A stretch of DNA of 64,000 bases from an uncultured Polyangiales bacterium (GCA_964624885.1 CAZUZY010000002.1:13348-77347); one strand, 5' to 3'. Shown: positions 12,969 through 45,328, counted from the stretch's first letter. Translations and numbers: made by a program. Notes: a model not told the origin generated them from the sequence alone.

Positions 12969-12998
12969 GGCGGGGAGCGAACCCGACCGTCGCCGGCC

Positions 12999-13048: not shown

Positions 13049-15013
<1,965 letters not shown>

Positions 15014-27787: not shown

Positions 27788-27814
27788 TTGCGACGGCGGG
27801 ATAGACTCCGCGCC

Positions 27815-29044
27815 ATGTCGGGTCTCGTCGGAAGGGCCGTCCTCGCCGGGGTGATCGCGCTCGCCGGGTGTTCGTCGAAGGACGCGCCCCCGGCGACCGC
27901 CGAGGACACGGGAGGCGAGGCGAGCGTCGCGCTGCCACCGTGGGCCATCGAGGCTCACGTCCTCGTCTCCGGGCACGACCCGGTGAGCGAGGACTGCCGC
28001 ACCGGGATCTGTCGCCACAACGAGAACACCGACCTGCTCGTGTGGAAGGGCGCCACCTATCTGGTGCACCGCACCGCCATCAGCCAGGTCCTCGGGCCGA
28101 ACAGCTCGCTGCGCATCTCGCGCACCACCGACGCGGGCAAGACCTGGGAGCCGCTCGCGACGATCCCCGCGCCGCTCGCCAAGCTCGGGCCCGACGACAA
28201 GGCCGACAAGGGACGCGACCTGCGTGACCCGTCGCTCTACGTCGTCGGCGACACGCTGCACCTCAAGGCGCTCACGCGGCTCCCGATCGTCTCGACGCGT
28301 GACGCGGGCGTCGACACCATCACCGTGCACAGCACCAGCACCGACGGCAAGACCTGGACGCCGCTCACCGCGATGGGCCCGCTCGGTCAGAGCTTCTGGC
28401 GCATCAAGAAGGCGCCGGACGGCAACTACTACAACGCGGCCTACGAGGACGCCGATCAGGCCGTGACGCTGTACTCGTCACCCGACGGCGTGACCTGGAC
28501 CAGGGGCGCGACGGTGTGGAGCGCCGCGGCGGACACCCCGCTCGAGACGGAGATCGAGTTCTTGCCCAAGGGGAAGATGCTCCTCCTCGTGCGCATGGAC
28601 GGAGACCCGGACAAGGCCGAATACCTGGACCCCGCGGCGCCGGGCGCGCGACAGCGGACGAAGGTCTGCTGGGCATCGCCGCCGTATTCGAAGGTCGACT
28701 GCCCGCAGGAGCTCACCAACGCGCGACTGGACGGCCCGGTGAGCTTCCAATGGAAAGGACGTTTGTTCGTCCTCGCACGCTCGCACCTTGCCGCAGTGAA
28801 GAAGCGGACGAGCCTGTTCGAGCTGAGCGGCGACCTCGACGGCGGGCCGCTCACGCTCAAGAACTGGGGTGACCTGCCGAGCGCGGGAGACACCGCCTAC
28901 GCCGGTGTCGCGCCGGTGGACGCCAACCGCTTCCTCGTGACCTGGTACTCGAGCGACGTCGGCGACGACCCGAACTGGCTCTACGGCATGGCGGGCCTGA
29001 CGGACGTGTGGCAGGGGACGCTCGATCTCTCGCGGCTGCCGTGA
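27815..29044 (+). CDS. BNR/sialidase-like beta-propeller lipoprotein
   Basis: Internal ATG 27815 of track ORF 27788..29044. Lipobox VIALAGC. BNR-type motifs TTDAGKTW, STDGKTW and SPDGVTW. Confidence 0.7.
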   Translation: MSGLVGRAVLAGVIALAGCSSKDAPPATAEDTGGEASVALPPWAIEAHVLVSGHDPVSEDCRTGICRHNENTDLLVWKGATYLVHRTAISQVLGPNSSLRISRTTDAGKTWEPLATIPAPLAKLGPDDKADKGRDLRDPSLYVVGDTLHLKALTRLPIVSTRDAGVDTITVHSTSTDGKTWTPLTAMGPLGQSFWRIKKAPDGNYYNAAYEDADQAVTLYSSPDGVTWTRGATVWSAAADTPLETEIEFLPKGKMLLLVRMDGDPDKAEYLDPAAPGARQRTKVCWASPPYSKVDCPQELTNARLDGPVSFQWKGRLFVLARSHLAAVKKRTSLFELSGDLDGGPLTLKNWGDLPSAGDTAYAGVAPVDANRFLVTWYSSDVGDDPNWLYGMAGLTDVWQGTLDLSRLP

Positions 29045-29728
29045 CGGTCGGAGCGTGGTGTGCGCGCGCTGCGTGACAGACTTCCTTTCGTCATCCAGGA
29101 CCGCGAAGCATCGCCGCGCGCGCTCCGCTTCCGCTGAGATTCGTCAAAAGCGCACGCGCATCGGTTGCGCGGCGGCCCGCCAGAAAGAGCGTTCGTTCGT
29201 GATTCTCACCCGTCGTTTCGTCTCGCTCTACGGCTGAGCACTGGCGACCCGAGGGAAAAACAAGGCCGTCGTCGGCGAGTGTTCCCTCGGTCTCCGCGAC
29301 CGTGCGCCGGCACACCAAGTGCTTGGTGAGGAGCGCCAACGTGTAACCAGGCCCCTTTTCCGGAGCCATCGTCCGGAGCCAGCCAAGCGAGGATGCAAGC
29401 CATGCGTTTTCGCGAAGCTCTCGCGCAGCACAGGGCCCTCAGTCAAACCGAGAAACCAAGGATAGGTCCCCCTAAGGACCATTGTGCGACGCGAAGAAGT
29501 GTGCGAACAACGCCCCGCATCGAGTCCCAGTGCATGAGCCTCGAGAGCGTGGTTCCGAAGTAAGAAGCGCAAGCTGGAAGACGTGCGCGAGGGCTCGACG
29601 GGCCGCCTGTGACCCCAACCGAGCGCGAGCGAACAGCGGTCGCCGAAGACGATCGCTGGTGGACAGTTCGGCTTCAACCCGGCCGGCGAGGGCACCTCGC
29701 TCGAGCTAGCAGAGGGAGCATTCACTCC

Positions 29729-32695
29729 ATGAAAAAGTATACGAAACCAATCTCGCTCAGTAGCTTCGGGCTGCTCGCAGCGAGCATGTTGCTGGTCAGC
29801 GCCTGCGAAGGCTCCGCCGGGGAAGCCGGCGCGGCCGGGGCACCCTGCTCGGTCAAGGCGAACACCGACGGCTCCTCCACGATCACGTGTCCGGACGGCA
29901 CGTCCGTCACGGTGACCGGTGGCAAGGGCGACAAGGGCGACCCGGGCGACGCGGGCGCCAAGGGCGATCCGGGCGACTCGGGCACCTCGTGCACGATCGT
30001 CGACAACCCCGATGGCACCAAGACCATCACCTGCACCGACGGCACCAAGATCACGCTCTCGACCTCCACGGTCGACTACGCGCTGCTCTCTCCCGCCGAG
30101 AAGGAAGTCCTCGATCCCACGCTCACCATCGTGAAGGCGGACTTCCCGGCCGATGGCAAGCCGGTCCTGACCATGAAGGTCACCGACCGCAAGGGCATGC
30201 CGGTCAAGGGGCTCAACGCCCTCACCGACGGCGCGGGCATCAGCTGGCGCGCGGCGGTCCTCAAGCTCGAGCCGGGCTGCACCACGGGCACGGCGTGCGC
30301 GGGCAAGAGCGCGGCCGACACCTGGATCAGCTACATGGCCGCCAACGCGACCTCGAGCGCGAGCACCGAGTCGGCGTCGACCACCGCGGCGGCAACGGCG
30401 ACGGCCGGTCTCCTCAAGGACAACGGCGACGGCACGTACACCTACACCTTCGCCAAGGTCATCAACGTCGAGGCGTCGGCCGGCACCAAGTACGAGGCCG
30501 ACAAGACCCACCGCATCGCGGTCATCGCTTCGAAGTCGGGCAACCCGTTCCGCCCGATGAACGCCTACAAGGACCTCGTGCCCGCCACCGGCGCGGACAT
30601 GACCGGCAAGAACGACAAGGTCAACGGCGCCAACTGCCTGAACTGCCACTCGGAGTTCCGCGGCCGCGCCCTCAAGTCGGCCGACTTCCATGGCGGCGCG
30701 CGCTACGAGACGCACATCTGCGTCGCGTGCCACAACGACCAGCGCAAGTACTCGAGCACCGGCGCCGTCACGGCGGAGCCGACCATGACCGCGAGCGCGA
30801 CCACGCCGCCCACGTTCAAGTGGACCGGCAACGCGGCGGTGATCAACGGTGAGGCGGTCATCAACTGGCCGGTCTTCGTCCACAAGATCCACATGGGCGA
30901 GGAGCTCAGCCTCAAGGCCGATCGCGCCGGCGGCGGCGGCGGCTACTCCGCGGTCCAGTTCGACGAGGTCACCTACCCGCAGGACATCCGCAACTGCGCC
31001 AAGTGCCACAGCACGGCCGACAAGGCCGACAACTGGAAGAACCTGCCGAGCCGGCGCGCCTGCGGCGCCTGCCACGACGGCGTCTCCTTCGAGGCGACCC
31101 CGCCGGTCGGCCGCAAGGCCCACACGGGCGGCGCCAAGACCGACGACACCACGTGCACCCTCTGCCACACGGCGGCGGACATCACGGCCAAGCACATCCC
31201 GGTGACCCCGCCGGCGGCCATCACCACCGGCACCCTGCCGAGCTCCCCGGACGGCCAGTACGTCCAGTCGGGCTGGCAGTTCATCGGTGGCGCCAACAAG
31301 AGCTGCACCGTGGCTGCTCCGTGCACCTGCACGACGCTCAACCCGTGCCTGCCGAGCGCCAACAGCAACGCGGCCTACCTCGCCGGCACGGGCTTCGTCC
31401 CGACGGGCGCGGCCAAGATCACCTACGACGTCAAGGAAGTCCTCGTCGACGCGACGACCAAGAACCCGAAGATCGTCTTCAAGCTGCTCAAGGACGGCAC
31501 GGACGTCGACTTCGGCACCTACGCGGCCGGCACCAAGACCGAGCTGATGGACGGCTTCGTCGGTTCGCCCAGCGCGTACTTCGCCTGGTCGCTCCCGCAG
31601 GACGGCATCGCCACCCCGGTCGACTTCAATGCGAGCGCCAGCGTCTACATCAAGGGCGCGTGGGACGGCTCCACCACGGGGATGACGCTCACGCGTGACA
31701 GCGCGACGGGCTACTACACCCTCACCGTGGGGACCGTGGTCCTCCCGTCGACGGCCAAGATGCTGACCGGTGGCATCGGCTACACGTACAGCATGACGAG
31801 CACCCAGCCGCTGACGCAGACCAGCGTGGCCGCGTACTCGTACTCCGCCACGACCAAGATGGGTGGCCTCATCGTGCCGGCGCCGAACGTCTGGAAGACC
31901 GCCACGGGCTACACCGCCCGTCGCGCGATCGTCGAGACGGCGCGCTGCAACAAGTGCCACGACGGCCTCGGCGTCGCGCCGACCTTCCACACCGGTCAGC
32001 GCAACGACGGCCCGACCTGCTCGTTCTGCCACAACCCGAACCGCGTCAACGGCGGCTGGGCGGTGAACGCGAAGGACATCATCCACGCCATCCACGGCTC
32101 CGAGAAGCGCACCGTGCCGTTCACCTGGCATGGTGAGATCAAGGCCTGGAAGGTCGCCTACCCCGGCGTCCTGAACAACTGCCAGCAGTGCCACGTTGCC
32201 GGCGGCAACGACTTCAGCACGACCGCGGCGACCAGCGCGCTGCCGAACATGCTGTACAGCACCGCCGCCACCGGCACCTACAGCAACGCGCCCACCGCGC
32301 CGGCGACCATCGGTCCGTTCATCGCGCCGTACGTCACGCCCGGCACGAACTACGGCAACGGCTACGCGACGTCGAACCAGACCACGGGCGTCCGCACCAC
32401 GGGCACCCAGGGTGGCGTCGCCTGCACGCCGAGCGCGCCCTGCACCTGCACGACCACTGCGCCGTGCGTCTGCTCGCTGACCGCGCCCTGCGAGGCCGAG
32501 TCGACGACCCTCGTCCACTCGCCGATCACCGCCGCCTGCAGTGCTTGCCACGACAGCACTGTCGCCAAGAAGCACTTCGCGGACAACAACGGCTCGCTCT
32601 ACCTGCCGCGTAGCGTCGCTATCGGCAAGCCCGAGCAGTGCCTGATGTGCCACGGACCTGGCAAGGTCGCGGCCATCGCCGACGTGCACCAGTAG
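29729..32695 (+). CDS. Decaheme c-type cytochrome lipoprotein, OmcA/MtrC-like, with N-terminal collagen-like segment
   Basis: ATG 29729 lies in the frame of track ORF 29609..32695 and is preceded by GAGGGAG. Lipobox LLVSAC (Cys26). There are exactly 10 CxxCH motifs, with first Cys at aa 303, 331, 423, 445, 476 and 740, 764, 818, 937, 971. These form two pentaheme groups separated by a ~260-aa heme-free region. Seven Gly-X-Y triplets at aa 64-85. Confidence 0.85.
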   Translation: MKKYTKPISLSSFGLLAASMLLVSACEGSAGEAGAAGAPCSVKANTDGSSTITCPDGTSVTVTGGKGDKGDPGDAGAKGDPGDSGTSCTIVDNPDGTKTITCTDGTKITLSTSTVDYALLSPAEKEVLDPTLTIVKADFPADGKPVLTMKVTDRKGMPVKGLNALTDGAGISWRAAVLKLEPGCTTGTACAGKSAADTWISYMAANATSSASTESASTTAAATATAGLLKDNGDGTYTYTFAKVINVEASAGTKYEADKTHRIAVIASKSGNPFRPMNAYKDLVPATGADMTGKNDKVNGANCLNCHSEFRGRALKSADFHGGARYETHICVACHNDQRKYSSTGAVTAEPTMTASATTPPTFKWTGNAAVINGEAVINWPVFVHKIHMGEELSLKADRAGGGGGYSAVQFDEVTYPQDIRNCAKCHSTADKADNWKNLPSRRACGACHDGVSFEATPPVGRKAHTGGAKTDDTTCTLCHTAADITAKHIPVTPPAAITTGTLPSSPDGQYVQSGWQFIGGANKSCTVAAPCTCTTLNPCLPSANSNAAYLAGTGFVPTGAAKITYDVKEVLVDATTKNPKIVFKLLKDGTDVDFGTYAAGTKTELMDGFVGSPSAYFAWSLPQDGIATPVDFNASASVYIKGAWDGSTTGMTLTRDSATGYYTLTVGTVVLPSTAKMLTGGIGYTYSMTSTQPLTQTSVAAYSYSATTKMGGLIVPAPNVWKTATGYTARRAIVETARCNKCHDGLGVAPTFHTGQRNDGPTCSFCHNPNRVNGGWAVNAKDIIHAIHGSEKRTVPFTWHGEIKAWKVAYPGVLNNCQQCHVAGGNDFSTTAATSALPNMLYSTAATGTYSNAPTAPATIGPFIAPYVTPGTNYGNGYATSNQTTGVRTTGTQGGVACTPSAPCTCTTTAPCVCSLTAPCEAESTTLVHSPITAACSACHDSTVAKKHFADNNGSLYLPRSVAIGKPEQCLMCHGPGKVAAIADVHQ

Positions 32696-32866
32696 TCGGA
32701 CCGAGCCGCGAGGCTCACGAGCGAGGCGCCGAGAGATCGGCGCCTCGCCGCTTTTTGTCTCGCGGGGAGAAATGCTCCGTTGCGTGACGAATGTCACGTG
32801 AAGGAGCCTGCCCGAAGGTACTGGCCCGGGGTCGGCCTGCAGTGTCGCCCGGAAGGAGGAGCGGTC

Positions 32867-35800
32867 ATGCGTCCTCGTCTCACAGTCGCAGTCGCGTTCG
32901 TCGTCCTCGTCGGATGTGGGGGTGGTTCGGGTGGAGAAGGGGAGCCGGACGTCGACGTCCTGGACGCGGACGACGCGGAGGCCGCGACGGACACGGCTTC
33001 GACCGAGGGGGCGCCCGACACCGTGGTGCCTGGGGACTCGGCCGCCGACGCCACCACGGACGCCACCGAGGACGCGGTCGAGACCAGCGACGCCAGCGAC
33101 GCGACGGTCGACGTGGGCTTCCCGACGATCTGCACGACCTGCCACGGCGACCCGGCGACCGCGAACCCGGCGCCTCCCAAGGCCGTCTCGGGCGCGACCG
33201 ACACGACCTCGCCCAAGGTGGGCGCACATGCCAAGCACCTCGCCACGAGCGCCTGGCGCCACGAGGTGGCCTGCAACGACTGCCACGAGGTCCCCACGAG
33301 TCCGACCCACAGCAACGGCAAGACCGACTTCAAGTGGAGCAGCCTGGCGGGTGGGGCGAGCTACGACACCACGTTCACCTGCCGCGGGGCGTACTGCCAC
33401 GGCGCGACGCTCCTGCCTCCCCCGGCGGGCACCAGCGTTGCGCGGGTGCCCATGTGGAACGTCGTCGACGGCACCTACTCCAAGTGTGGAGAGAGCTGCC
33501 ACACCAACCCTCCCGGGGGTGGACACATCACCTCGACGAGCTGCTCCACCTGCCACGGCGACGTCATCGCCTCGTACGACGCGACCACCAAGACGGCCGT
33601 CTGGAAGGACGCTTCCCGCCACATCAACGGCACCGTCGATCTGGTCGGTGGCAAGACCTGCACGACGTGCCACGGCGACCCGGTCGCCAAGAGCCCGGCG
33701 CCCCCCAAGGGCACCAAGGGGGAGACCGCGACCACCGACCACGCGGTCGGCGCGCACCAGAACCACCTGCGCCCGAGCACGTGGCGGCGCGACGTCCAGT
33801 GCAACGACTGCCACGCGTTGCCGTTCCTCACCGAGCACTCCGACGGCAAGACCGACTTCGTGTGGAGCAGCGTCGCGACGAGTGGCGGTGCGACCCCACT
33901 CTACGACACCACCTCGTACACGTGCACGAGCGTGTACTGCCACGGCACGACGCTGAAGGGCGCCGTCACCGGCGGCACGATCAACCGCGAGCCGATCTTC
34001 AACCAGGTGGATGGCACGTTCAACGCCTGTGGCTCCAGCTGCCACACCAACCCTCCCGGTGACACCCACCCCAACAACACCGCGTGCCCCTCGTGTCACG
34101 GCGCGGTGATCGCGACCTACGACCCGGTGACGAAGGCGGCCACCTGGAAGGACCGCACGCTGCACGTCGACGGCATCGTCGAGCGCTCGACGCTCACCTG
34201 CACCACGTGCCACGGCAACCCGGTGACGGGCGATCCGGCGCCCCCGCTCTCCACCAAGGGGGAGACCGCCACGACGGCGCAAGCGGTCGGCGCGCACCAG
34301 GCCCACCTCGCGACGAGCACCTGGCGCAAGGACATGGTCTGCAGCGACTGCCACGTGGTGCCGACCTCCACGTCGCACTTCGATGGCAAGACCGACCTCG
34401 CGTGGGGCGCGCTCGCCACCACGCGCGGCAGCAAGCCCGCCTACGACGCCGCGAGCGCCAAGTGCTCGACGGTCTACTGCCACGGCGACGGCCTCCTCGG
34501 CGCCGCCTCGGGCGGCACCGTCGCCCGCAGTCCGATCTGGAACGTGGTCGACGGCACGTGGAAGGCGTGCGGCACCACCTGCCACACCAACCCTCCCGGA
34601 GGCACGCACCCCGCAGACACCGGCTGTCCCACCTGCCACGGCACGGTCATCGCGAGCTACGACGCGTCGACGAAGACGGCGACGTGGAAGAACCGCACGC
34701 TGCATGTCAACGGCGTGGTCGAGAAGTCTGCGTTGCTCTGCACCTCGTGCCACGGCGACCCCGCGGTCAACGAGGCGCCACCCAGGGGGACCAAGGGCGA
34801 GACCCTGAGCTCGCAGAAGGCGGTCGGCGCGCACCAGAAGCACCTGTCGACCTCGGCCTGGCACCGCGACGTCGTGTGCGCGGACTGCCACGAGAAGCCC
34901 GTCTCGCCCACGCACTCGAACGGCGTCACGGACTTCGCGTGGAGCACTCTGAGCTCGGCCGCCGGCGCGAAGCCGGCCTACGACGGCGCGACCGCGACCT
35001 GCTCGAGCGTGTACTGCCACGGCAGCACGCTGCTGCCCGCGACCAGCGGCGGAACGACCAAGCGTTCGCCGGTGTGGACGACGGTGGACGGCTCCTTCGA
35101 GGCCTGCGGCGCGAGCTGCCACACCAACCCGCCCGGCGGGACACACCCGACCTCCACGGCGTGCAACACCTGCCACGGCGCGGTCGTCACGAGCTACGAT
35201 CCGGTGACCAAGGCCACGGTCTGGAAGGACCGCACGCTCCACATCAACGGCGTCGTCGACCGCGTGGACCTGAACTGCACCTCGTGTCACGGCAACCCGC
35301 TGACCAGCGACGCGGCGCCGCCCAAGGGCACCAAGGGCGAGACCCTGAGCTCGCAGAAGGCCGTCGGCGCCCACCAGAACCACCTGCTCACGAGCACGTG
35401 GCGCAAGGACCTCGCCTGCAACGACTGCCACGCGGTGCCCATCTCGCCGACCCACACCAACTCGGTGACGGACTTCTCGTGGGGTGCGCTGAGCACGACG
35501 GGCGGCGCCACGCCGAGCTACGACTCGGCCACCGTGACCTGCTCTGGCGTCTACTGCCACGGCTCCACGCTGGCGGGGGCGATCGTCGGCGGCACGGTCA
35601 AGAAGGCGCCGCTCTGGACGACCGTCGACGGCAGCTATGTCGCCTGCGGTGCGAGCTGCCACACCAACCCGCCCGGCGGCACGCACAGCACGAGCACCGA
35701 CTGCGCGATGTGCCACGGCACGGTCATCGCGGGGTACGACGCGACGACCAAGAAGGCCACGTGGGCGGACCGCACGCTGCACGTGAACGGCAAGAAGGAG

Positions 35801-36682
35801 TCGAGCAAGTACCACGACCTCGGTGGCTGGACCTCGCCCGGCGGAGGCGCCAACCACCACGGGAGCCACTACTTCCTCACCAACCAGCAGAAGGACGAGC
35901 ACGGCCGCCTCTGCACCGACTGTCACGGTACGGACTACGCGGGTGGCACGGTGGGTGTCTCCTGCAACAACGCGAGCTGCCACAAGGGTGCCGACTGGCG
36001 CGGATGCTCCTTCTGCCACGGCACGCCGCCGAGTCAGTGGAGCCCACCGGTCGGCGTCGCGAAGGAGACCGCGACCAACACGCTCGCGGTCGGGCGCCAC
36101 ACGGCGCACCTGACGAGCAGCACGACGCACGTCGCCTTCGCCTGCGCGACCTGTCACACGGTGCCCGCGACGGGCGACGTGTCGCACGCCCTCGGCTACG
36201 TGTCGAGCCCGACCCTCGAGACCACCGGTCACCACGGTGACGTCACCTTCACCGCGGGCGGCGTGGGCATGACGTTCGCGGCGACCGCCTCGACCGGCAC
36301 CCCCGTCACCGCGCGCGGCACCTGTCTCGGCGGTTGTCACTCGAACGGTCGCGGTGGTCCTCCGGCGGTGACGCCGTACTGGGCCGGCGGAGCGTGGACG
36401 GTGGGTAGCTGCACCGCCTGCCACTCGAACTCGATGAGCAGCCTCGGCGCCCGGCACCCGAAGCACTCGGGCGAGGGCCTCACGTGCACGTCGTGTCACC
36501 CGGCAGCGAGTGGGAGCACGCACCTCGACGGCACGAAGGAGGTGTCCGGGACGATCACCGGGCCGTCGGGGGGCTCGGTCACGACGAAGGCGCCCGGTGC
36601 TGCGGGCAATCCGTGCGGTGCGGCGTGGTCGTGCAGCGGGACCTGCCACGGCAAGTCGCACACGAACTTCTGCTGGAAGTGA
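32867..36682 (+). CDS. Giant multiheme c-type cytochrome lipoprotein (CxxxxCH...CxxCH repeat family), 33 heme-attachment motifs
   Basis: ATG 32867 lies in the frame of track ORF 32780..36682 and is preceded by GGAAGGAGGA. Lipobox VLVGC. I counted 20 CxxCH, 6 Cx4CH and 7 Cx3CH motifs. Five tandem modules of 176-180 aa are followed by a degenerate sixth. Confidence 0.85.
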   Translation: MRPRLTVAVAFVVLVGCGGGSGGEGEPDVDVLDADDAEAATDTASTEGAPDTVVPGDSAADATTDATEDAVETSDASDATVDVGFPTICTTCHGDPATANPAPPKAVSGATDTTSPKVGAHAKHLATSAWRHEVACNDCHEVPTSPTHSNGKTDFKWSSLAGGASYDTTFTCRGAYCHGATLLPPPAGTSVARVPMWNVVDGTYSKCGESCHTNPPGGGHITSTSCSTCHGDVIASYDATTKTAVWKDASRHINGTVDLVGGKTCTTCHGDPVAKSPAPPKGTKGETATTDHAVGAHQNHLRPSTWRRDVQCNDCHALPFLTEHSDGKTDFVWSSVATSGGATPLYDTTSYTCTSVYCHGTTLKGAVTGGTINREPIFNQVDGTFNACGSSCHTNPPGDTHPNNTACPSCHGAVIATYDPVTKAATWKDRTLHVDGIVERSTLTCTTCHGNPVTGDPAPPLSTKGETATTAQAVGAHQAHLATSTWRKDMVCSDCHVVPTSTSHFDGKTDLAWGALATTRGSKPAYDAASAKCSTVYCHGDGLLGAASGGTVARSPIWNVVDGTWKACGTTCHTNPPGGTHPADTGCPTCHGTVIASYDASTKTATWKNRTLHVNGVVEKSALLCTSCHGDPAVNEAPPRGTKGETLSSQKAVGAHQKHLSTSAWHRDVVCADCHEKPVSPTHSNGVTDFAWSTLSSAAGAKPAYDGATATCSSVYCHGSTLLPATSGGTTKRSPVWTTVDGSFEACGASCHTNPPGGTHPTSTACNTCHGAVVTSYDPVTKATVWKDRTLHINGVVDRVDLNCTSCHGNPLTSDAAPPKGTKGETLSSQKAVGAHQNHLLTSTWRKDLACNDCHAVPISPTHTNSVTDFSWGALSTTGGATPSYDSATVTCSGVYCHGSTLAGAIVGGTVKKAPLWTTVDGSYVACGASCHTNPPGGTHSTSTDCAMCHGTVIAGYDATTKKATWADRTLHVNGKKESSKYHDLGGWTSPGGGANHHGSHYFLTNQQKDEHGRLCTDCHGTDYAGGTVGVSCNNASCHKGADWRGCSFCHGTPPSQWSPPVGVAKETATNTLAVGRHTAHLTSSTTHVAFACATCHTVPATGDVSHALGYVSSPTLETTGHHGDVTFTAGGVGMTFAATASTGTPVTARGTCLGGCHSNGRGGPPAVTPYWAGGAWTVGSCTACHSNSMSSLGARHPKHSGEGLTCTSCHPAASGSTHLDGTKEVSGTITGPSGGSVTTKAPGAAGNPCGAAWSCSGTCHGKSHTNFCWK
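33131..35810 (+). repeat. Five in-frame tandem coding repeats of ~530-540 bp inside the giant cytochrome gene
   Basis: The first Cys codon of each module's CT(T/S)CHG lies at 33131, 33659, 34199, 34739 and 35276, giving periods of 528, 540, 540 and 537 nt. Units 4 and 5 share exact runs such as accaagggcgagaccctgagctcgcagaaggc and gcgagctgccacaccaacccgcccggcgg. Confidence 0.9.
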
Positions 36683-36780
36683 GCGTCGGCCCGGACCGAC
36701 AGGCGGTCTCGCTGGATTCGTCCAGTGAGGCAGCCTGCTCCGGTGGGGCATTCGGTACCGTGCGTGAAGGGAGATCTTTC

Positions 36781-37170: not shown

Positions 37171-40100
37171 CTAGCGCACCCGCGGCTTGGTGAACCGGTC
37201 CATCGCGAGGTAGATGACCGGCGTCGTGAACAGGGTGAGGAGCTGCGAGAGCAGGAGCCCGCCGACGATGGTGATGCCGAGCGGGGTGCGGAGCTCCGAG
37301 CCCGCGCCGCCGCCGATGGCCAGCGGCAGGCCGCCGAGGAGGGCGGCCATCGTGGTCATGAGGATCGGTCGGAAGCGCAGCACGGCCGCCTTGTAGATCG
37401 CGTCGACCGGCGGCACGCCCTCGTCGCGCTCGAGCTCGATGGCGAAGTCGATCATCATGATGGCGTTCTTCTTCACGATGCCGATGAGCAAGAGGATGCC
37501 GACCAGCGCGATGATGCTGAACTCGGTCTTGAAGAGCAGCAACGCGAGCAGCGCGCCCACGCCGGCCGAGGGCAGGGTGGACAGGATGGTGATGGGGTGG
37601 ATGGTGCTCTCGTAGAGCACGCCGAGCACGATGTAGACGGTGATCAACGCCGCCAGGATCAGGAACGGCTGCGACGAGAGCGAGCTCTGGAACGCCTGGG
37701 CGGTGCCCGAGAACGAGCCCTGCACGGTCGCCGGCGCGCCGATGGCGAGGCGCGCCTTCTCGATGGCCGCGACGGCGTCGCTCATCGCCTTGCCGGGCGC
37801 GAGGTTGAACGAGATGGTCGTCGAGGGGAACTGGCCTTGGTGGTTGACCGAGAGGGCGGTCGCGCTCTCCTTCACCTTGGTCACCGCCGACAGCGGCACA
37901 GGCCCGCCCGCCGAGCCGACGAAGATCTTGCCGAGCGCGTCGGGCGTCGTCGAGAGCTCCGGCTTGATCTCGAGGACCACGCGGTACGGATTGGCCTGGG
38001 TGTAGGTGGTCGCGATCTGCCGCTGCCCGAACGCGTCCGAGAGCGTCGCGTCGATCGCGACGGGCGTGATCCCGAGCTTGCTCGCGCTGTCGCGGTCGAT
38101 CCCGAGCTCGAGCTGTCGACCCGCGGTCTGCTGGTCGGTGTTGACGTCCTTGAGCTCGGGGAGCTTGCGGAGGGCGTCGACCAGCTTCGGACCCCACACG
38201 AGCAGCTCCTCGAGGTTCGCGTCCTGGAGCGTGTACTGGTACTGCGTGCGGGCGAGGCGGCCGCCGATGCGGACGTCCTGCATCGACTGCAGGAACAGCG
38301 TGATCCCGTCGGCCTTGGCGAGCTGGGGGCGCAGCCGGGCGATGATGGCGTCGGCGGTCACCTTGCGGCCGGTGCGGGGCTTGAGCGCGATGAACGTGGT
38401 GCCGGTGTTGCCCGCCGAGCCGCCGGGGCCACCGCCCATGAACGACACCGAGTGGAGCACCTCCGGGTCGGTCTTCACGATCTCGTTGAGCTTGGTCTGC
38501 CGCGCCAGCATCGCGGGGAAGCTGATGTCCTGCGGGGCCTCCGAGAAGCCCATCAGCATGCCGGTGTCCTGCTGGGGGAACAGGCCCTTCGGGACGATGA
38601 CGTAGAGATAGATGGTGAGCGAGAGCGTGAGGACGGTGAGCAGACCCACGACGGGGCGATGGCGCAGCACCCAGCGCAGCGCGCCGGAGTAGGCGCCGAG
38701 CAGGCCGTCGAAGAACGCCTCCGAGGCGCGAGCGAGCAGGCCAGGCCGCTCCGTGCTGCGCGTGCGGAGCAGCTGGGCGCACATCATCGGCGTCAAGGTG
38801 AGCGACACCACGGCCGAGATGGCGATGGCGATGCTGAGCACCACCGCGAACTCCCGGAAGAGTCGTCCGACGATGCCCCCCATCAGCAGGATGGGGATGA
38901 ACACCGCGAGCAGGGACACCGTGATCGAGACGATGGTGAAGCCGATCTGCTTCGCGCCGCGCAAAGCGGCTTCGACCGGCGCGACCCCCTCCTCGAGGAA
39001 TCGGGTCACGTTCTCGGTCACCACGATGGCATCGTCGACCACGAAGCCGGTCGCGATGGTGAGGGCCATCAGCGACAGGTTGTCGAGGCTGTAGTCGAGC
39101 AGGTACATCACGCCGAACGTGCCGAGCAGCGAGATCGGCACCGCGACGCTCGGGATGATGGTGGCCCGCGCGCTCCGCAGGAACACGAACACCACCGCGA
39201 TCACGAGGCCGATGGAGATGAGCAGGGTCTTCTCGACGTCCTCGACCGAGGCGCGGATGGTCTCGGTGCGATCGACGGCCACCTCGAGCTTGATCGCCGG
39301 GGAGATCGAGGTGGAGAGCTTGGGGATCAGCGATTTGACCCGCTCGGTCGTCTCGATGATGTTGGCGCCGGGTTGCCGGCGGACGATGCACAGCACGGCG
39401 CGGCGGCCGTCGGCCCAGGCGGCGACCCGGTTGTTCTCCACGTCGTCGACGACCTGGGCGACGTCGCGCAGGCCCAGGGCCGCGCCGGCGTTGTGGCGCA
39501 GCACGAGCCCCTCGAAGGCCCGGGCGCCGAACAGCTGGTCGTTGGCGCCGATGGTCTGGGTGAGCAGCGCGCTCGAGAGCGAGCCCTTGGGCACGTCGAC
39601 GGTGGCGCCCGCGATGACGGTCCGCACGTCCTCGAGGGAGAGCCCGGTGCCGGCCAGCTTCAGGGGGTCGACCTGCACGCGCACGGCGGGCTGCTGGCCG
39701 CCACCGACGAACACCTGCCCGACGCCGTCGACCTGCGAGATCTTCTGGGCCAGCACCGTGTTGGCCTCCTCGAACACCCGCGACAGCGGGAGCGCGTCCG
39801 AGGTGAGGGCCAGGATCAGGATCGGCGTGTCCGCGGGGTTCACCTTGCGGTAGTTCGGCCGCGTCGGCATGTTGGTCGGGAGCTCGCCGCCCGCGGCGCC
39901 GATCGCGGCTTGCACGTCGCGCGCCGCCGAGTCCGCGTCGCGGTCGAGGTCGAACTGCATCGTGATCTGCACCGAGCCGATCGCCGACGTGCTGGTGATC
40001 TCGGTGATCCCGGCGATGCGCCCGAACCGGCGCTCGAGCGGGGTGGCGACGGCCGCCGCCATCGTCTCGGGCGAGGCCCCGGGGAGCGCCGCGTTCACCG

Positions 40101-40236
40101 AGATGGTGGGGAAGTCCACCCGCGGGAGCGGTGAGACCGGCAGGAGCTTGTAGGCGGCGAGCCCCGCCAGCAGGATCGCGAGCGCGAGCAGCGTCGTCGC
40201 GATGGGCCGACGGATGAACGGCTCGCTGACGTTCAC
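37171..40236 (-). CDS. mdtC: Multidrug efflux RND transporter permease, MdtC-like
   Basis: GTG 40236 lies in the frame of track ORF 37171..43410 and overlaps the TGA of the upstream gene. The N-terminus VNVSEPFIRRPIATTLLALAILLAGLAAYKLLPVSPLPRVDFPTISV...GASPETMAAAVATPLERRFGRIAG aligns closely, by eye, with E. coli MdtC. Confidence 0.9.
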   Translation of the reverse strand: MNVSEPFIRRPIATTLLALAILLAGLAAYKLLPVSPLPRVDFPTISVNAALPGASPETMAAAVATPLERRFGRIAGITEITSTSAIGSVQITMQFDLDRDADSAARDVQAAIGAAGGELPTNMPTRPNYRKVNPADTPILILALTSDALPLSRVFEEANTVLAQKISQVDGVGQVFVGGGQQPAVRVQVDPLKLAGTGLSLEDVRTVIAGATVDVPKGSLSSALLTQTIGANDQLFGARAFEGLVLRHNAGAALGLRDVAQVVDDVENNRVAAWADGRRAVLCIVRRQPGANIIETTERVKSLIPKLSTSISPAIKLEVAVDRTETIRASVEDVEKTLLISIGLVIAVVFVFLRSARATIIPSVAVPISLLGTFGVMYLLDYSLDNLSLMALTIATGFVVDDAIVVTENVTRFLEEGVAPVEAALRGAKQIGFTIVSITVSLLAVFIPILLMGGIVGRLFREFAVVLSIAIAISAVVSLTLTPMMCAQLLRTRSTERPGLLARASEAFFDGLLGAYSGALRWVLRHRPVVGLLTVLTLSLTIYLYVIVPKGLFPQQDTGMLMGFSEAPQDISFPAMLARQTKLNEIVKTDPEVLHSVSFMGGGPGGSAGNTGTTFIALKPRTGRKVTADAIIARLRPQLAKADGITLFLQSMQDVRIGGRLARTQYQYTLQDANLEELLVWGPKLVDALRKLPELKDVNTDQQTAGRQLELGIDRDSASKLGITPVAIDATLSDAFGQRQIATTYTQANPYRVVLEIKPELSTTPDALGKIFVGSAGGPVPLSAVTKVKESATALSVNHQGQFPSTTISFNLAPGKAMSDAVAAIEKARLAIGAPATVQGSFSGTAQAFQSSLSSQPFLILAALITVYIVLGVLYESTIHPITILSTLPSAGVGALLALLLFKTEFSIIALVGILLLIGIVKKNAIMMIDFAIELERDEGVPPVDAIYKAAVLRFRPILMTTMAALLGGLPLAIGGGAGSELRTPLGITIVGGLLLSQLLTLFTTPVIYLAMDRFTKPRVR

Positions 40237-43200
40237 GGCGCGGCGGCCTCGCTCTCCAGCGGGGGAGCCTTCGCGCCGCGGAAGAGGCGGGAGAGTCGCT
40301 CCATGTAGAGGTACACGACCGGCGTCGTGTAGAGCGTGAGCACCTGCGAGATGAGGAGCCCCCCGACGATGGTGATGCCGAGCGGGCGACGCAGCTCGGC
40401 GCCCGTGCCCGTCTCGATGGCCAGCGGTAGGCCGCCGAGCAGCGCGGCCATGGTGGTCATCATGATCGGCCGGAACCGCAGGAGGCACGCCTTGTGGATC
40501 GCCTCCTCGGGGGTGAGGCCCTGCTCGCGCTCCGCCTCCAGCGCGAAGTCGATCATCATGATGGCGTTCTTCTTCACGATGCCGATGAGCAGCACGATGC
40601 CGATGAGCGCGATGATGGTGAACTCCACCCGGCACACGAGCAGCGCGAGGAACGCGCCCACGCCCGCGGAGGGCAGCGTCGAGAGGATGGTGACGGGGTG
40701 GATGTAGCTCTCGTAGAGCACACCGAGCACGATGTAGACGGTGAGCAGGGCGGCCAGGATCAAGAGGGGCTCGCTGGCCAGCGAGGCGCGGAACGCCTGG
40801 GCGGTGCCCTGGAAGTCGGCGTGGATCCCGGGCGGCAGCTCGAGGCGCACCGAGGTCCGGCGGATGGCCTCGACCGCGTCGCCGAGGGAGACCCCGGGCG
40901 CCGTGTCGAACGACAGCGTGACCACCGGGAACTGGCCCTGGTGGGTGATGGCGACCGGCGCCGAGGTCTCCTCGAACTTGGCGAACGACGAGAGCGGGAT
41001 GCTGGCGCCCCCCGTGGCCTTCACGAAGACCTGCGCCAGCGCCGACGGGCTGTCCTGGTACTCGGGCTTCACCTCGAGGATCACGCGGTACTGGTTGAGC
41101 TGGGTGAAGATGGTGGAGATCTGCCGCTGACCGAACGCGTCGTAGAGGACGTCGTCGATCTGCTGCGGCGACACGCCGAGGCGCGACGCGGTGTCGCGGT
41201 CGATGACCACGGTGACCTTGCGGCCAAGAGCCCCTTGATCGCTCGCCACGTTGCGCAGCTCCGGGAGCTTGCGCAGCTCCTCGAGGAGCCGCGGCGCCCA
41301 GACGCGGAGCTCCTCGGGGTCGGCGTCCTCGAGCGTGTACTGGTACTGGGTGCGCGACGCCCGGCTCTCGATGGTGAGGTCCTGCACCGGCTGCAGGTAG
41401 ACCGCGAGGCCAGCGACCCCGGCGAGCTTCGGCTCGAGGCGCGCGAGGATGGCGGCGATGTCGCTCGAGCGCTCCTCGCGGGGCTTGAGCGAGATCGAGA
41501 AGCGGCCGCTGTTGCTGGTGGCGTTCTGGCCGTCGGCGCCGATGAACGACGAGACACTGACCACGTCTGGGTCCTTGCGCAGCACGTCCGCGGCCGCGCG
41601 CTGCAGGTCGATCATGCGGGTGAAGGAGACGTCGGGCGCTGCCTCGGTGACGCCGAGGATCAGGCCGGTGTCCTGCTGGGGGAAGAACCCCTTGGGGACG
41701 AGGACGGCGAGCCAGGCCGTGAGGACGACGGTGCCGATGGTGAGCAGCAGGGTGAACAGCTGGTGACGCAGCACCCACCGCACACCGACGTCGTAGCCGG
41801 CGATGATCCGCTCCCACACGCGCTCGCTCCACTGGTAGAGGCGGCCCTCCTTGCGCTCCTCCCGGAGGAGGTGGGCGCACATCATGGGCGTCAGGGTGAG
41901 TGACAGCACCGCCGAGACGGCGATGGCCGCGGCGAGGGTGACCGCGAACTCGCGGAACAGGCGCCCGATGAGCCCCTGCATGAAGAGGAGCGGGATGAGC
42001 ACCGCGATCAGCGACACGGTGAGCGAGACGATCGTGAAGCCAATCTGCTTCGCGCCCGCGAGCGCGGCCTCGAACGGCGACTCGCCCTCCTCGATGTAGC
42101 GGGCGATGTTCTCGATCATCACGATGGCGTCGTCGACGACGAAGCCGGTCGAGATGGTGAGCGCCATCAGCGAGAGGTTGTTCAGCGAGTACCCGAGGAA
42201 GTACATCACGCCGAACGTGCCCACGAGCGAGAGCGGGACCGCGAGCGCCGGGATCAGCGTGGCGCGCCAGTTGCGCAGGAACACGAAGATCACCATGACG
42301 ACGAGGCCGATGGTGAGCACCAGCGTGAACTGCACGTCGCGCACCGAGGCCCGCACGGTCTCGGTGCGGTCGGTGAGGATCTCGACCTTCATGCCTTGCG
42401 GCAGCGAGGAGGAGAGCTGAGGCAGCAGCGCCTTCACCCGATCGGCGACCTGGATGATGTTGGCGCCGGGCTGGCGCTGGACGTTGAGGATGACGGCGCG
42501 GTGGTCGCCGGCCCACCCGGCGAGCTGGGTGTTCTCCACGCCGTCGGTCACCTTGGCCACCGCGCGGAGCCGGATCGGCGCGCCGTTGCGGTAGGCGAGG
42601 ATGATCGGCTCGAACTGCTTGGCCTCGGTGAGCTGATCGTCGGTCTGCAGGGTGAAGTCCTGCCGCGGGCCGTCGATGTTGCCCTTGGGCTGGTTCACGT
42701 TGGCGGCGACGACGGCGAGGCGGACGTCCTCCATGGTGAGCGAGGCGCCCGCGAGCGCGGCCGGGTCGACCTGCACGCGCACCGCGGGCTTCTGGCCGCC
42801 GCCGAGCGTGACGAGGCCCACGCCCGACACCTGCGAGATCTTCTGCGCCAGGATCGAGTCGGCGTAGTCGTCCACCTTCTCGAGCGGCAGCGTGTCGGAC
42901 GAGATCGAGAGGGTGAGGATCGGCGCGTCGGCGGGGTTGCTCTTGCTGTAGACCGGCGGGGCCGGCAGCGTGCGCGGCAGGAGGTTGCTCGCGGCGTTGA
43001 TGGCCGCCTGCACGTCCTGCTCGGCGGCGTCGATGCTCCGATCCAGGTTGAACTGCAGGGTCACCTGCGACCACCCGAAGCTCGAGACCGAGGTCATCTG
43101 CGTGAGCGCCGGGATCTGCCCGAACTGTCGCTCGAGGGGCGTGGTGACCGCCGACGCCATCGTCTCGGACGAGGCGCCGGGCAGGTACGTCGAGATGACG

Positions 43201-43334
43201 ATGGTCGGGTAGTCGACCTGCGGGAGCGCCGAGACCGCGAGCTCCCGATAGGCGACCAGGCCCGCGAGCAGGAGTCCGATCATCAGCAGCGTCGTCGCCA
43301 CCGGCCGGCGGATGAACGGCGCCGAGATGCTCAC
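40233..43334 (-). CDS. mdtB: Multidrug efflux RND transporter permease, MdtB-like
   Basis: Track ORF of 1033 aa. MSISAPFIRRPVATTLLMIGLLLAG...LPQVDYPTI...TPLERQFGQIP...AEQDVQAAINAA aligns closely, by eye, with E. coli MdtB. Confidence 0.9.
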   Translation of the reverse strand: MSISAPFIRRPVATTLLMIGLLLAGLVAYRELAVSALPQVDYPTIVISTYLPGASSETMASAVTTPLERQFGQIPALTQMTSVSSFGWSQVTLQFNLDRSIDAAEQDVQAAINAASNLLPRTLPAPPVYSKSNPADAPILTLSISSDTLPLEKVDDYADSILAQKISQVSGVGLVTLGGGQKPAVRVQVDPAALAGASLTMEDVRLAVVAANVNQPKGNIDGPRQDFTLQTDDQLTEAKQFEPIILAYRNGAPIRLRAVAKVTDGVENTQLAGWAGDHRAVILNVQRQPGANIIQVADRVKALLPQLSSSLPQGMKVEILTDRTETVRASVRDVQFTLVLTIGLVVMVIFVFLRNWRATLIPALAVPLSLVGTFGVMYFLGYSLNNLSLMALTISTGFVVDDAIVMIENIARYIEEGESPFEAALAGAKQIGFTIVSLTVSLIAVLIPLLFMQGLIGRLFREFAVTLAAAIAVSAVLSLTLTPMMCAHLLREERKEGRLYQWSERVWERIIAGYDVGVRWVLRHQLFTLLLTIGTVVLTAWLAVLVPKGFFPQQDTGLILGVTEAAPDVSFTRMIDLQRAAADVLRKDPDVVSVSSFIGADGQNATSNSGRFSISLKPREERSSDIAAILARLEPKLAGVAGLAVYLQPVQDLTIESRASRTQYQYTLEDADPEELRVWAPRLLEELRKLPELRNVASDQGALGRKVTVVIDRDTASRLGVSPQQIDDVLYDAFGQRQISTIFTQLNQYRVILEVKPEYQDSPSALAQVFVKATGGASIPLSSFAKFEETSAPVAITHQGQFPVVTLSFDTAPGVSLGDAVEAIRRTSVRLELPPGIHADFQGTAQAFRASLASEPLLILAALLTVYIVLGVLYESYIHPVTILSTLPSAGVGAFLALLVCRVEFTIIALIGIVLLIGIVKKNAIMMIDFALEAEREQGLTPEEAIHKACLLRFRPIMMTTMAALLGGLPLAIETGTGAELRRPLGITIVGGLLISQVLTLYTTPVVYLYMERLSRLFRGAKAPPLESEAAAP

Positions 43335-44584
43335 GGATGCTTCCCGCTCGGCTTGCCCGAAGGGGCCGCCGACTTGCCCTCGGGCGCCGCGGGGCCGAAC
43401 GGGCGAGCAATCACGCGCGCGCCCGGCCGCAGCTGGCTCTGGCCGTCGACCACCACGCGGTCGCCGACCGCGAGCCCCTTGCTGACGACGACGAGGTCGC
43501 CCTGGGTCATCTCCACCTCGACCGGGACCAGCCGGACCTTGTCACCCTCCTCCACGACGTACGCGTACGCCCCCTGAGGGCCGCGCTGGACGACCGTGGC
43601 CGGGACCGCGATCGCCGCCTTCTTGGTGGTGAGGGCGAGGCGCGCCTTCACGAACTGGTTCGGCCAGAGAACGCGCTTGTCGTTGGCGAACACGGCCTTG
43701 AGCCGGATGGTCGCGGTCGTCGGGTCTATCTTGTTGTCGACGAGGAGTAGCTCCCCGTGCGCGAGGAGTTGCGCGCCGTCGCGGCTGTAGGCGTCCACCC
43801 CGAGCTTGCCCTTGGCCATGGCCGAGCTGATCCGCGGCAAGTCGTCCTCGGGCAGCGTGAAGATCACCGTGATCGGATCGAGCTGGGTGATCACGACGAT
43901 TCCACCGGGGTCGCTCGGGTGGACGACGTTCCCCACGTCCACCAGCCGGACCCCGGTGACGCCGTCGATCGGTGACTTGATGCGCGCGAAGTCGAGCTGC
44001 AGCTGGGCGTTCGCGGCGGTGGCGGCGTCACCGGCGACGACCCCCTCGTTCTTGGCGACCTCGGCGCGGGCGTCGTCGACCGCCTGTTGCGAACCGACCC
44101 CCTGCTTGAACAGGTTCTCGTTGCGGGCGAGTACCAGCCTGGCGTTGGTGAGGACCGCCTTGTCACGCAGCAGTGCTGCCGAAGCGAGCTGCGCCTGGAT
44201 GGCGAAGGGGCGCGGGTCGATCTGCACGAGCAGCTCGCCCGCCTTCACGGAGGCCCCCTCGGTGAAGAGGATCTTGTCGATGCGGCCGTCCACCTGCGGC
44301 TTCACCGTGACCGTGTTGTAGGCGGTGACGGACCCGAGGGCGTCGAGCACGACCGGTAGATCCCGGGCGGTCACGGTGATCACCGGCACCGGCACGATGC
44401 GCTCCGACGCCGACGCCGAGGGCGCGGACCCGGCGCCCGTCCCGAGCGCGCGCGACCGGACGAACAGGCCGATGCCGAGCACGGCGCCGAGGGCCAGCAC
44501 GGTGAGCACGACGCGGCGGAGAGGGGACGAGGGTGGCAAGGTGCACGGCGATGTTGGCACGGCAGGTCGCGCACGCGGCTTCAC
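43331..44584 (-). CDS. mdtA: Efflux RND transporter periplasmic adaptor (membrane fusion protein), MdtA-like
   Basis: Lies in the frame of track ORF 43331..44710. The start is uncertain (GTG 44584 or GTG 44560; ATG 44710 would overlap the divergent regulator gene). Motif VKPQVDGRIDKILFTEGASVKAGELLVQIDPRPF. The stop overlaps the mdtB ATG (ATGA). Confidence 0.8.
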   Translation of the reverse strand: MKPRARPAVPTSPCTLPPSSPLRRVVLTVLALGAVLGIGLFVRSRALGTGAGSAPSASASERIVPVPVITVTARDLPVVLDALGSVTAYNTVTVKPQVDGRIDKILFTEGASVKAGELLVQIDPRPFAIQAQLASAALLRDKAVLTNARLVLARNENLFKQGVGSQQAVDDARAEVAKNEGVVAGDAATAANAQLQLDFARIKSPIDGVTGVRLVDVGNVVHPSDPGGIVVITQLDPITVIFTLPEDDLPRISSAMAKGKLGVDAYSRDGAQLLAHGELLLVDNKIDPTTATIRLKAVFANDKRVLWPNQFVKARLALTTKKAAIAVPATVVQRGPQGAYAYVVEEGDKVRLVPVEVEMTQGDLVVVSKGLAVGDRVVVDGQSQLRPGARVIARPFGPAAPEGKSAAPSGKPSGKHP

Positions 44585-44626
44585 TTCACATTCCCTCACA
44601 CGCGCACGCGCTATCCTCGTGCCTCG

Positions 44627-45328
44627 ATGACCTCGGTGACGATCCGCGTGCTGCTGGTCGAGGACGACGCTCGTCTCGCGCGACTCACCGCCAAGTACCT
44701 GGAGTCGCATGGTCTCCTGGTGTTCGTGGTGGGCGACGGGCAGGAGGCACTGGCGCAGGCGGTCCTGTCGCGACCCGACGTGGTGTTGCTCGACCTCATG
44801 CTGCCCGGTCTCGACGGGTTCGCGGTCTGCCGCCAGCTCCGCGAGCGGCTCGACGTCCCCATCCTGATGGTGACGGCGCGTGGCGAGGAGGCCGAGCGGG
44901 TGGTCGGCCTCGAGGGCGGCGCCGACGACTACCTCGTGAAGCCCGTCTCGTCACGCGAGCTCCTGGCGCGTATCCGGGCGCACGTGCGGCGGGCGCGCGG
45001 CGAGCTCGTGCGGAGCGAGGAGCGCATCGAGGTGGGGCCCCTCCGTGTGGAGCCGAAGACCCTCCGGGCGACCCTCGAGGACCGCGAGCTCGCCCTCACC
45101 ACGTACGAGTTCGCGCTGCTGCGCGCGCTCGCCGAGCGCGCCGGGCGGGTGCTGTCTCGCGAGCAGCTGATCGAGCTGGTGCGGGGGAGCGCGGACCAGG
45201 CCTTCGACCGCTCGATCGACGTTCACGTCTCCCACCTCCGGGCGAAGCTCGGCGACGACCCGCGGAGCCCGCGGATCCTCAAGACCATCCGGGGGCTCGG
45301 CTACATGCTCGCGCTCGAGAAGGCCTGA
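44627..45328 (+). CDS. OmpR/PhoB-family response regulator (BaeR-like context)
   Basis: Track ORF of 233 aa. Receiver domain RVLLVEDD...VVLLDLMLPGLDG...ADDYLVKP. Winged-helix C-terminus LKTIRGLGYML. Confidence 0.9.
   Translation: MTSVTIRVLLVEDDARLARLTAKYLESHGLLVFVVGDGQEALAQAVLSRPDVVLLDLMLPGLDGFAVCRQLRERLDVPILMVTARGEEAERVVGLEGGADDYLVKPVSSRELLARIRAHVRRARGELVRSEERIEVGPLRVEPKTLRATLEDRELALTTYEFALLRALAERAGRVLSREQLIELVRGSADQAFDRSIDVHVSHLRAKLGDDPRSPRILKTIRGLGYMLALEKA

Follow-up and report, generated by a model that had tools for sequence, protein, structure and literature searches.

The decaheme gene and its product

The gene described here encodes a decaheme cytochrome and lies in a 64,000-nt stretch of DNA from an uncultured Polyangiales bacterium (GCA_964624885.1 CAZUZY010000002.1:13348-77347), which we call the window and to whose positions all coordinates refer; features are on the plus strand unless stated otherwise. 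The open reading frame (ORF) at 29729-32695(+) translates into 988 amino acids (aa) and a stop codon, and its product was identified as a lipoprotein of the OmcA/MtrC family by translation, profile hidden Markov models (HMMs), alignment to MtrF, an AlphaFold2 (AF2) model and Foldseek. Because the GC content of the stretch is 70.9%, long ORFs are found on both strands, including an antisense one of 2507 aa (29228-36751) that covers the gene. Based on codon-position GC, this and the other overlapping ORFs are in the wrong phase and were set aside as high-GC shadows, while a GC content of 0.93 at third codon positions (GC3) marks 29729-32695(+) as the true coding frame. A GGGAG stands ahead of the ATG, and the position of this start is kept in two related genomes.

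The protein opens with a lipoprotein signal peptide, MKKYTKPISLSSFGLLAASMLLVSAC, which together with the lipobox V-S-A-C and its Cys26, as read from the sequence, occupies 29729-29806; Cys26 is kept in 113 of the 116 sequences of our homolog set, most of which come from metagenome-assembled genomes (MAGs) of Myxococcota. Ten CxxCH motifs follow in two groups of five (C303, C331, C423, C445 and C476, then C740, C764, C818, C937 and C971) with a heme-free domain between them, and no Cx3-4CH motif is present in the 988 residues. An earlier note on this DNA had already given the length, the lipobox cysteine and the five-plus-five layout starting at aa 303, and all ten motif positions that it listed were found to be exact.

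Family membership, fold and heme ligands

Several lines of evidence show that the 988-aa protein is a genuine decaheme lipoprotein of the OmcA/MtrC family, in which a first beta-barrel (domain I), a pentaheme domain (II), a second beta-barrel (III) and a second pentaheme domain (IV) follow one another. The NCBIfam model TIGR03507 matches with 382.1 bits (E=5e-114; curated cutoff 209.3), with aa 141-987 aligned to profile positions 4-672, and PF22113, which describes domains II and IV of MtrC and MtrF, covers aa 732-841 (E=6.6e-42); the match to MtrC-MtrF_N is negligible. Among proteins of solved structure the best relative by sequence is MtrF (3PMQ, E=5.8e-22), and a search with a profile of the family returned both MtrF (E=1.8e-40) and OmcA (E=2.3e-19). 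The AF2 model, a monomer without hemes built on the alignment of the 116 sequences, has a mean predicted local distance difference test (pLDDT) score of 81.4 and a predicted template modelling (pTM) score of 0.78. When it was compared with the PDB by Foldseek, the 11 matches at E<=0.001 (E from 8e-25 to 6e-17) were all chains of OmcA (4LMH), MtrC (6QYC, 7O7G and 7QTH), UndA (3UCP) or MtrF (3PMQ), and the TM-score normalised to MtrC was 0.70-0.73.

The heme ligands point the same way. All ten CxxCH motifs are invariant across the 116 sequences (Cys, Cys and His alike), and so are ten further histidines outside the motifs, five in domain II (His321, 385, 388, 465 and 489) and five in domain IV (His754, 786, 789, 949 and 987), which is the count that bis-His ligation of ten hemes requires and which lends indirect support to a staggered-cross heme arrangement. 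The proposal of the earlier note that the core follows the OmcA/MtrC plan is therefore borne out well beyond the number of motifs, by an HMM match above the curated cutoff as well as by a predicted fold whose only significant PDB counterparts are OmcA, MtrC, UndA and MtrF.

Domain layout and the source of the extra length

The same note had credited the protein with some 270 to 300 extra N-terminal residues, made up of a collagen-like segment and a beta-rich region, and this part did not survive a residue-by-residue alignment to MtrF. From the lipid-bearing cysteine to heme 1 the distance is 277 aa, against 170 in MtrF, a difference of 107. The total excess over MtrF is about 350 aa, and most of it resides in three internal insertions: between hemes 2 and 3 (92 aa against 35, +57), between hemes 5 and 6 in domain III (264 against 175, +89), and between hemes 8 and 9 (119 against 40, +79). 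Two of these three insertions bear a C-x5-C-x-C-x5-C motif.

The beta-rich region at aa ~131-295 (30119-30613) is an ordinary domain I, because TIGR03507 starts to match at aa 141, PF22112 (OmcA-like_N) matches aa 210-288, and aa 123-324 are aligned to OmcA residues 46-250 by the family profile; its strands are modelled with pLDDT 85-97. On sequence comparison, the genuine N-terminal addition is thus aa 27-130, and it accounts for the ~107 aa by which the protein exceeds MtrF ahead of heme 1. Of the module as first described, the collagen-like segment stands, while the beta-rich region is the domain I that the Shewanella proteins also have, so that the 300 extra residues were largely an artefact of not recognising it. 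The practical value of this result is a corrected annotation, with ~107 residues in place of 300 and the remaining length assigned to internal insertions.

Domain II (30614-31198) holds hemes 1-5 and the 57-aa longer loop between hemes 2 and 3, as placed by the motifs, Pfam and the MtrF alignment. The second beta-barrel, domain III, spans aa ~491-730 (31199-31918) and goes ~89 aa beyond its MtrF counterpart according to the alignment and the AF2 model. Hemes 6-10 are in domain IV (31919-32692; PF22113 and MtrF alignment), which includes the ~79-aa insertion between hemes 8 and 9 (aa ~840-928, 32246-32512); across homologs this spacing varies from 79 to 267.

The N-terminal stalk

The feature that sets this decaheme apart is a stalk of ~100 aa, and not 300 extra residues. 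Directly after Cys26 comes a first run of four GXY triplets (aa 28-39, 29810-29845), aligned to CGGSDGDDGSPGEPG of MtrF, and then a CFSR-like repeat, CSVKANTDGSSTITCPDGTSVTV, with Cys40 and Cys54 (aa 40-62, 29846-29914). A collagen-like run of eight GXY triplets (aa 64-87, 29918-29989; pLDDT below 50) separates it from a second such repeat, CTIVDNPDGTKTITCTDGTKITL, with Cys88 and Cys102 (aa 88-110, 29990-30058). A conserved linker, VDYALLSPAEKEVLDP (30059-30118; consensus VDYAxMxADExAALD), then leads from the stalk to domain I and carries a short conserved helix, VDYALLSPAEKEVL, which is modelled as helical at 122-126. Both 23-aa repeats match PF19079 (CFSR) below its cutoff; in the AF2 model each folds into three short strands, whereas disorder is predicted for the GXY runs. 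Conservation also supports the assignment: the Cys pair of the first repeat is present in 112/116 sequences, and Cys26, 40, 54, 88 and 102 are each kept in at least 112 of the 116, to which this layout is common. The collagen-like segment of the earlier note thus holds, with four triplets at aa 28-39 to be added to the eight at aa 64-87, and the extension, whose conservation it had left to be checked, is conserved among relatives. Homologs have two or three CFSR repeats and from 0 to 23 GXY triplets; three of them (P0003, P0013 and P0026) have precomputed PF19079 matches, and P0013, P0034 and P0053 match PF01391 (Collagen), to which the decaheme itself gave no match at E<=1.

A word-indexed search with the stalk alone returned a single match, and an exhaustive search was used instead. 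With aa 39-112 as the query, it identified 798 representative clusters of proteins from 90 to 2716 aa long. Among 78 of these module relatives that were scanned, 51 contained CFSR (best E=1.4e-21) and 40 contained Collagen, while MtrC domains were present in only 4, the other cargo including LRR_5, DUF7151, FGE-sulfatase and SRCR domains. Given this diversity of cargo and the rarity of MtrC domains, the stalk is a promiscuous surface-protein module that the cytochrome clade acquired; no other gene of the window has it. In the literature that we searched, collagen-like or CFSR N-termini are undescribed for the MtrC family, and this includes the GXY runs of the beta- and gammaproteobacterial MtrCs. 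The latter, encoded in mtrCAB operons, have long Pro-rich GXY runs after the lipid-bearing cysteine and lack CFSR (L061, L067, L069, L078, L082, L084, L085 and L089); that of L085 has ~17 triplets and matches Pfam Collagen with E=3.8e-4.

One might ask whether the CFSR repeats nucleate a triple helix of the collagen-like runs, which would put three decahemes together on a single rigid stalk. Collagen repeats usually flank CFSR, as the 40 of 78 module relatives with a Collagen match illustrate, up to 23 consecutive triplets occur within the family (P0053), and the long GP-rich runs of the beta- and gammaproteobacterial MtrCs, including the Collagen match of L085, would fit such an arrangement. 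The present protein, however, has only 8+4 triplets, and some homologs have no GXY run at all between their CFSR repeats; characterised bacterial collagens have many more triplets than this. The run is also modelled as disordered, even though a monomer model could not reveal a triple helix. We therefore regard a trimer as improbable, and a spacer or tether, to which we return below, as the preferred reading of the stalk.

Cysteine motifs

The sequence APCTCTT, which occurs at aa 530 and aa 903, is a portion of the C-x5-C-x-C-x5-C motif. The earlier note had the first copy right and the second one residue too far (~904); its statement that a copy follows the start of each pentaheme group does not agree with the domain map, as copy 1 lies ~50 aa past heme 5, where domain III begins, and copy 2 between hemes 8 and 9. 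Copy 1 (C526-x5-C532-x-C534-x5-C540, 31304-31348) is confined to the subclade of the query protein (16/116 sequences) and has a local pLDDT of 46-79. Copy 2 has six cysteines (C899-x5-C905-x-C907-x5-C913-x-C915-x5-C921, 32423-32491), of which the core four are kept in 94-95 of the 116 sequences, with pLDDT 84-96, and relatives have up to three occurrences of the motif between hemes 8 and 9. Ten sampled beta-, gammaproteobacterial and acidobacterial relatives lack it. Known myxobacterial cysteine-rich repeat families were considered as a source of APCTCTT and rejected, as no Pfam or NCBIfam model matched at E<=1. These motifs could represent disulfide staples of the surface insertions. A separate observation concerns an Anaeromyxobacter sp. 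MAG (L077, 4771-14144) in which three OmcA/MtrC-type genes for 10-heme proteins lie in tandem; of these, the one that was examined has a long GXY run, no CFSR repeat and four C-x5-C-x-C-x5-C motifs.

Gene neighbourhood in the window

The only other cytochrome gene of the window is located just downstream (32867-36682) and codes for a 1271-aa lipoprotein, a multiheme cytochrome with six TIGR01904 CxxxxCH/CxxCH domains according to HMM and motifs; no MtrA-like gene was found in the 64 kb. With 20 CxxCH, 7 CxxxCH and 6 CxxxxCH motifs, this neighbour could bind up to 33 hemes. Its lipid-bearing cysteine is followed by an acidic low-complexity tether of ~75 aa, and its TIGR01904 domains are arranged in tandem repeats of ~180 aa. 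In both of the closest genomes (L001/L011 and L010) the gene likewise lies downstream of that for the decaheme, and its product is a candidate redox partner. A terminator-like hairpin with a 12-bp stem, 10 of its pairs GC, and a T-run (32721-32758) lies 26 nt past the decaheme stop codon; due to its location between the two cytochrome genes, the decaheme gene is probably its own transcription unit.

Upstream, the 684-bp intergenic region contains a conserved non-coding core of ~290 nt (29309-29600) that is ~98% identical to L001 and L010, compared to 89% for the aligned region as a whole, and that has a minimum free energy (MFE) z-score of -2.98; it could be a structured 5' leader or a regulatory region. 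The GC content of 29140-29728(+) is lower (~60%), and coding DNA of the three genomes is ~89% identical. An Rfam scan of the conserved region gave no match at E<=1, and nhmmer with the upstream region recovered only the three closest genomes among 89 loci. The only small ORF here, of 58 codons, was discarded, as a 1-nt indel breaks its frame in L001 and L010.

Farther upstream, a 418-aa ORF (27788-29044(+)) was evaluated as a porin partner and rejected: its product is a predicted lipoprotein that bears three SxDxGxTW (Asp-box/BNR-like) repeats and is matched by no Pfam or NCBIfam model. It is missing from the otherwise syntenic closest genome, L001, save for a 147-nt remnant, which indicates an indel between close relatives. 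On the opposite strand, 37171-44710(-) contains two tandem genes for RND transporters of the AcrB/MdtBC type (37174-40236 and 40233-43334) and alongside them a gene for an HlyD-family membrane-fusion protein (43331-44710); these converge on the cytochrome pair and are probably unrelated to it.

Relatives and their gene contexts

More than 900 protein clusters match the decaheme, the best of them (87% identity) coming from a MAG of Myxococcales and further ones from Polyangiaceae, Kofleriaceae and Polyangia. Among species-representative genomes, relatives were found in 365, of which the best 59 are Myxococcota-type MAGs; next, with identities of 36-41%, come Burkholderiales, Steroidobacteraceae, and one MAG each of Solibacteraceae and Nitrospirae. 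Within Myxococcota MAGs the family is spread over Polyangiaceae, Kofleriaceae, Myxococcaceae and Archangiaceae, mostly as orphan genes, and in 38 of the 59 Myxococcota-type loci the flanks that were retrieved contain no further multiheme gene. The family itself is known, and automated pipelines name such proteins correctly. Our literature search found no paper that pairs "decaheme" with Polyangia, Myxococcales, Anaeromyxobacter or Haliangium, and Myxococcota are unmentioned in two surveys of MtrCAB distribution (PMC8805035 and PMC12133095), the second of which, from 2025, calls mtrCAB genes in Desulfobacterota previously unreported.

These contexts bear on the possibility that the protein is simply the MtrC subunit of a canonical MtrCAB complex, with mtrA and mtrB elsewhere in the genome and a stalk that is incidental. 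An MtrA-like gene adjoins the relative in 12 of the 21 loci from beta-, gammaproteobacteria and other groups, and relatives from Burkholderiales, Steroidobacteraceae and Gammaproteobacteria, in the 36-41% identity range, show the order mtrC-mtrA-mtrB, with MtrB_PioB matches of E=1e-148 in L085 and 3e-168 in L089. Separation of the genes also has a precedent, as mtrC is found apart from mtrAB in Desulfobacterota (PMC12133095). Among the 59 Myxococcota-type loci, on the other hand, only 3 have a nearby ORF of MtrA-like size with 9-11 hemes, and the window, as said, has no MtrA-like gene. Where conduit-like genes do adjoin the decaheme in Myxococcota, they encode a 13-heme protein and a 426-aa protein without a Pfam match, rather than MtrA and MtrB_PioB. 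A distal MtrAB partnership thus seems quite unlikely to us.

The 13-heme gene is present in 10 of the 59 loci, often with a NapC/NrfH-like protein, a TIGR01904-type cytochrome and the 426-aa protein, for which no family match was obtained (L004 is an example). The L004 cluster (756-13081) starts with a 5-heme protein resembling NapC/NrfH, a pair of monoheme cytochromes c and a TIGR01904-type lipoprotein of 554 aa, a relative of the 1271-aa neighbour cytochrome, and goes on with the 426-aa signal-peptide protein, a 13-heme protein of 349 aa and two tandem stalked OmcA/MtrC paralogs. Similar clusters were seen in L005, L020, L023, L029, L041, L046 and L071. Clusters of this type are a candidate for a non-Mtr outer-membrane conduit in Myxococcota, in which the 426-aa protein could be the porin.

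Proposed function

Taken together, the best explanation of these data, and one that we consider likely, is that the gene encodes an outer-surface, lipid-anchored OmcA/MtrC-family decaheme of a Polyangia-type myxobacterium, displayed on a stalk. As in MtrC and OmcA, the heme core would be a cell-surface relay that passes electrons to extracellular acceptors, which could be Fe or Mn oxides, humics or electrodes, or to partner cytochromes. The stalk would act as a spacer or tether, lifting the cytochrome off the membrane toward its partners instead of docking it rigidly on an adjacent MtrAB. With the gene as its own transcription unit, the likeliest local partner would be the neighbouring ~33-heme lipoprotein, and genes for the trans-outer-membrane conduit would have to lie elsewhere in the genome; among relatives, some may use the porin-cytochrome-like cluster with the 13-heme protein as this conduit, and not MtrAB.

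We acknowledge that several points weigh against this reading. The 23-aa units reach 22.5 bits with CFSR PF19079 (E=1.4e-4), where the gathering cutoff is 27, and the PF22112 match of domain I is likewise just short of its gathering threshold (26.3 bits against 27). Family membership is the basis on which exposure at the surface, loading with heme and the physiological electron acceptor are proposed. The window covers 64 kb of the genome, and MtrAB may be encoded elsewhere. The closest relatives are MAGs from wastewater, soil and fen; the groups to which they belong are usually regarded as aerobes, and Polyangia-type myxobacteria as aerobic predators, so that a respiratory role in metal reduction is not assured. 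Finally, in all Shewanella clades (MtrC, MtrF, OmcA and UndA) domain III has a CX8-15C disulfide loop, a redox switch that gates flavin binding (PMC4486940), and in the Polyangiales protein this loop is missing at the equivalent position, the only cysteines of domain III being 526, 532, 534 and 540, near its start. At least 41 other family members, many of them myxobacterial, have a C-x5-C loop near aa 711, where the query protein has no cysteine. Flavin-dependent behaviour may consequently differ from that in Shewanella.

Some of these observations could be accommodated if the protein served an aerobic or predatory myxobacterium in a different extracellular redox task, and were not a terminal reductase of respiration: electron uptake from Fe(II), iron acquisition, reduction of peroxide or oxygen, and redox attack on prey all come to mind. 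Such a role would be in keeping with a family that is widespread in Myxococcota MAGs mostly as orphan genes, with the cytochrome bd oxidase and hemerythrin genes in the L004 neighbourhood, and with the absence of the redox-switch disulfide. No feature specific to any of these tasks was seen, however, the fold and the heme ligands are fully conserved, and to our knowledge all characterised members of the family act in outward extracellular electron transfer, Mtr-type conduits being known to run in both directions. On balance we think a different task rather unlikely, and retain outward electron transfer by a surface-displayed decaheme as the working interpretation.

A broader possibility, which we put forward with considerable doubt, is that Myxococcota have a large undescribed class of MtrAB-independent stalked decahemes, in which the module of lipid-bearing cysteine, GXY runs and CFSR repeats would be a dedicated display device that keeps the MtrC-type heme cross at a distance from the membrane, where this cross could shuttle electrons among a non-Mtr conduit, giant multiheme lipoproteins and external minerals or neighbouring cells. 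The module may trimerise through its collagen-like runs, or may be a tether for surface export. If such a class exists, Polyangia-type myxobacteria would have a hidden capacity for extracellular electron transfer. For electron transfer from microbes to minerals and electrodes, the reference proteins are MtrC and OmcA. Distribution surveys have looked for whole mtrCAB clusters, and in the populous clade described here the decaheme core is uncoupled from MtrAB, is joined to a generic surface stalk, bears additional cysteine motifs and lacks the Shewanella flavin-switch disulfide. If these proteins are functional, more organisms of soil, groundwater and wastewater would be expected to exchange electrons with solids, and the clade would be a natural experiment in which the effects of tether length and of docking on surface electron transfer could be compared.

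Comparison with known systems

The closest structural parallels are MtrF and MtrC of Shewanella (3PMQ, 4LM8-type and 6QYC), which are lipoproteins of four domains with ten CxxCH motifs in the same order and hemes in one-to-one correspondence to those of the Polyangiales protein; MtrC gives the best TM-score (0.70-0.73), and MtrF even has a short GXY run, CGGSDGDDGSPGEPG, after its lipid-bearing cysteine. Identity to both is nevertheless only ~15-17%, and the Polyangiales decaheme is ~350 aa longer, has two CFSR repeats and the extra C-x5-C-x-C-x5-C motifs, lacks a CX8C loop at the Shewanella position and has no mtrAB next to its gene. OmcA (4LMH) is the top Foldseek match (E=7.9e-25) and shares domain I, for which the Polyangiales protein has an OmcA-like_N match. 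The protein resembles OmcA and UndA (3UCP) in not being encoded within a porin complex unit and may be a peripheral, mobile surface cytochrome; by its PF22112 score just short of the cutoff and its negligible MtrC-MtrF_N match it belongs to neither of these clades, though, and it has no 11th heme, and differs from them in its N-terminus and disulfide pattern.

In sequence, the long-form MtrCs of Burkholderiales, Steroidobacteraceae and Gammaproteobacteria (L085, L089 and that of Pseudaquabacterium terrae S2, L067) are nearer, at 36-41% identity and ~930-1005 aa. They share the enlarged domain III, the enlarged spacing between hemes 8 and 9, and a collagen-like GXY run after the lipid-bearing cysteine, but are encoded in mtrC-mtrA-mtrB operons and have neither CFSR repeats nor the cysteine motifs. 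The stalk, in turn, resembles that of CFSR/collagen surface proteins (PF19079 with PF01391), in which a two-cysteine repeat of ~23 aa also alternates with GXY near the N-terminus; these proteins are secreted or lipid-anchored and carry LRR, DUF7151, sulfatase-modifying-enzyme or SRCR cargo, where the Polyangiales protein carries a decaheme cytochrome. A last parallel is with OmcB of the Geobacter porin-cytochrome (Pcc) conduit. The two have no relationship in sequence or fold, and Pcc-like partners are absent from the 64-kb window. OmcB is likewise a multiheme cytochrome lipoprotein of the cell surface, and there are two further points of contact: in L004 the homologs of the Polyangiales decaheme adjoin a putative porin and a periplasmic multiheme protein, and the neighbour in the window has the Geobacter-type CxxxxCH/CxxCH domain.

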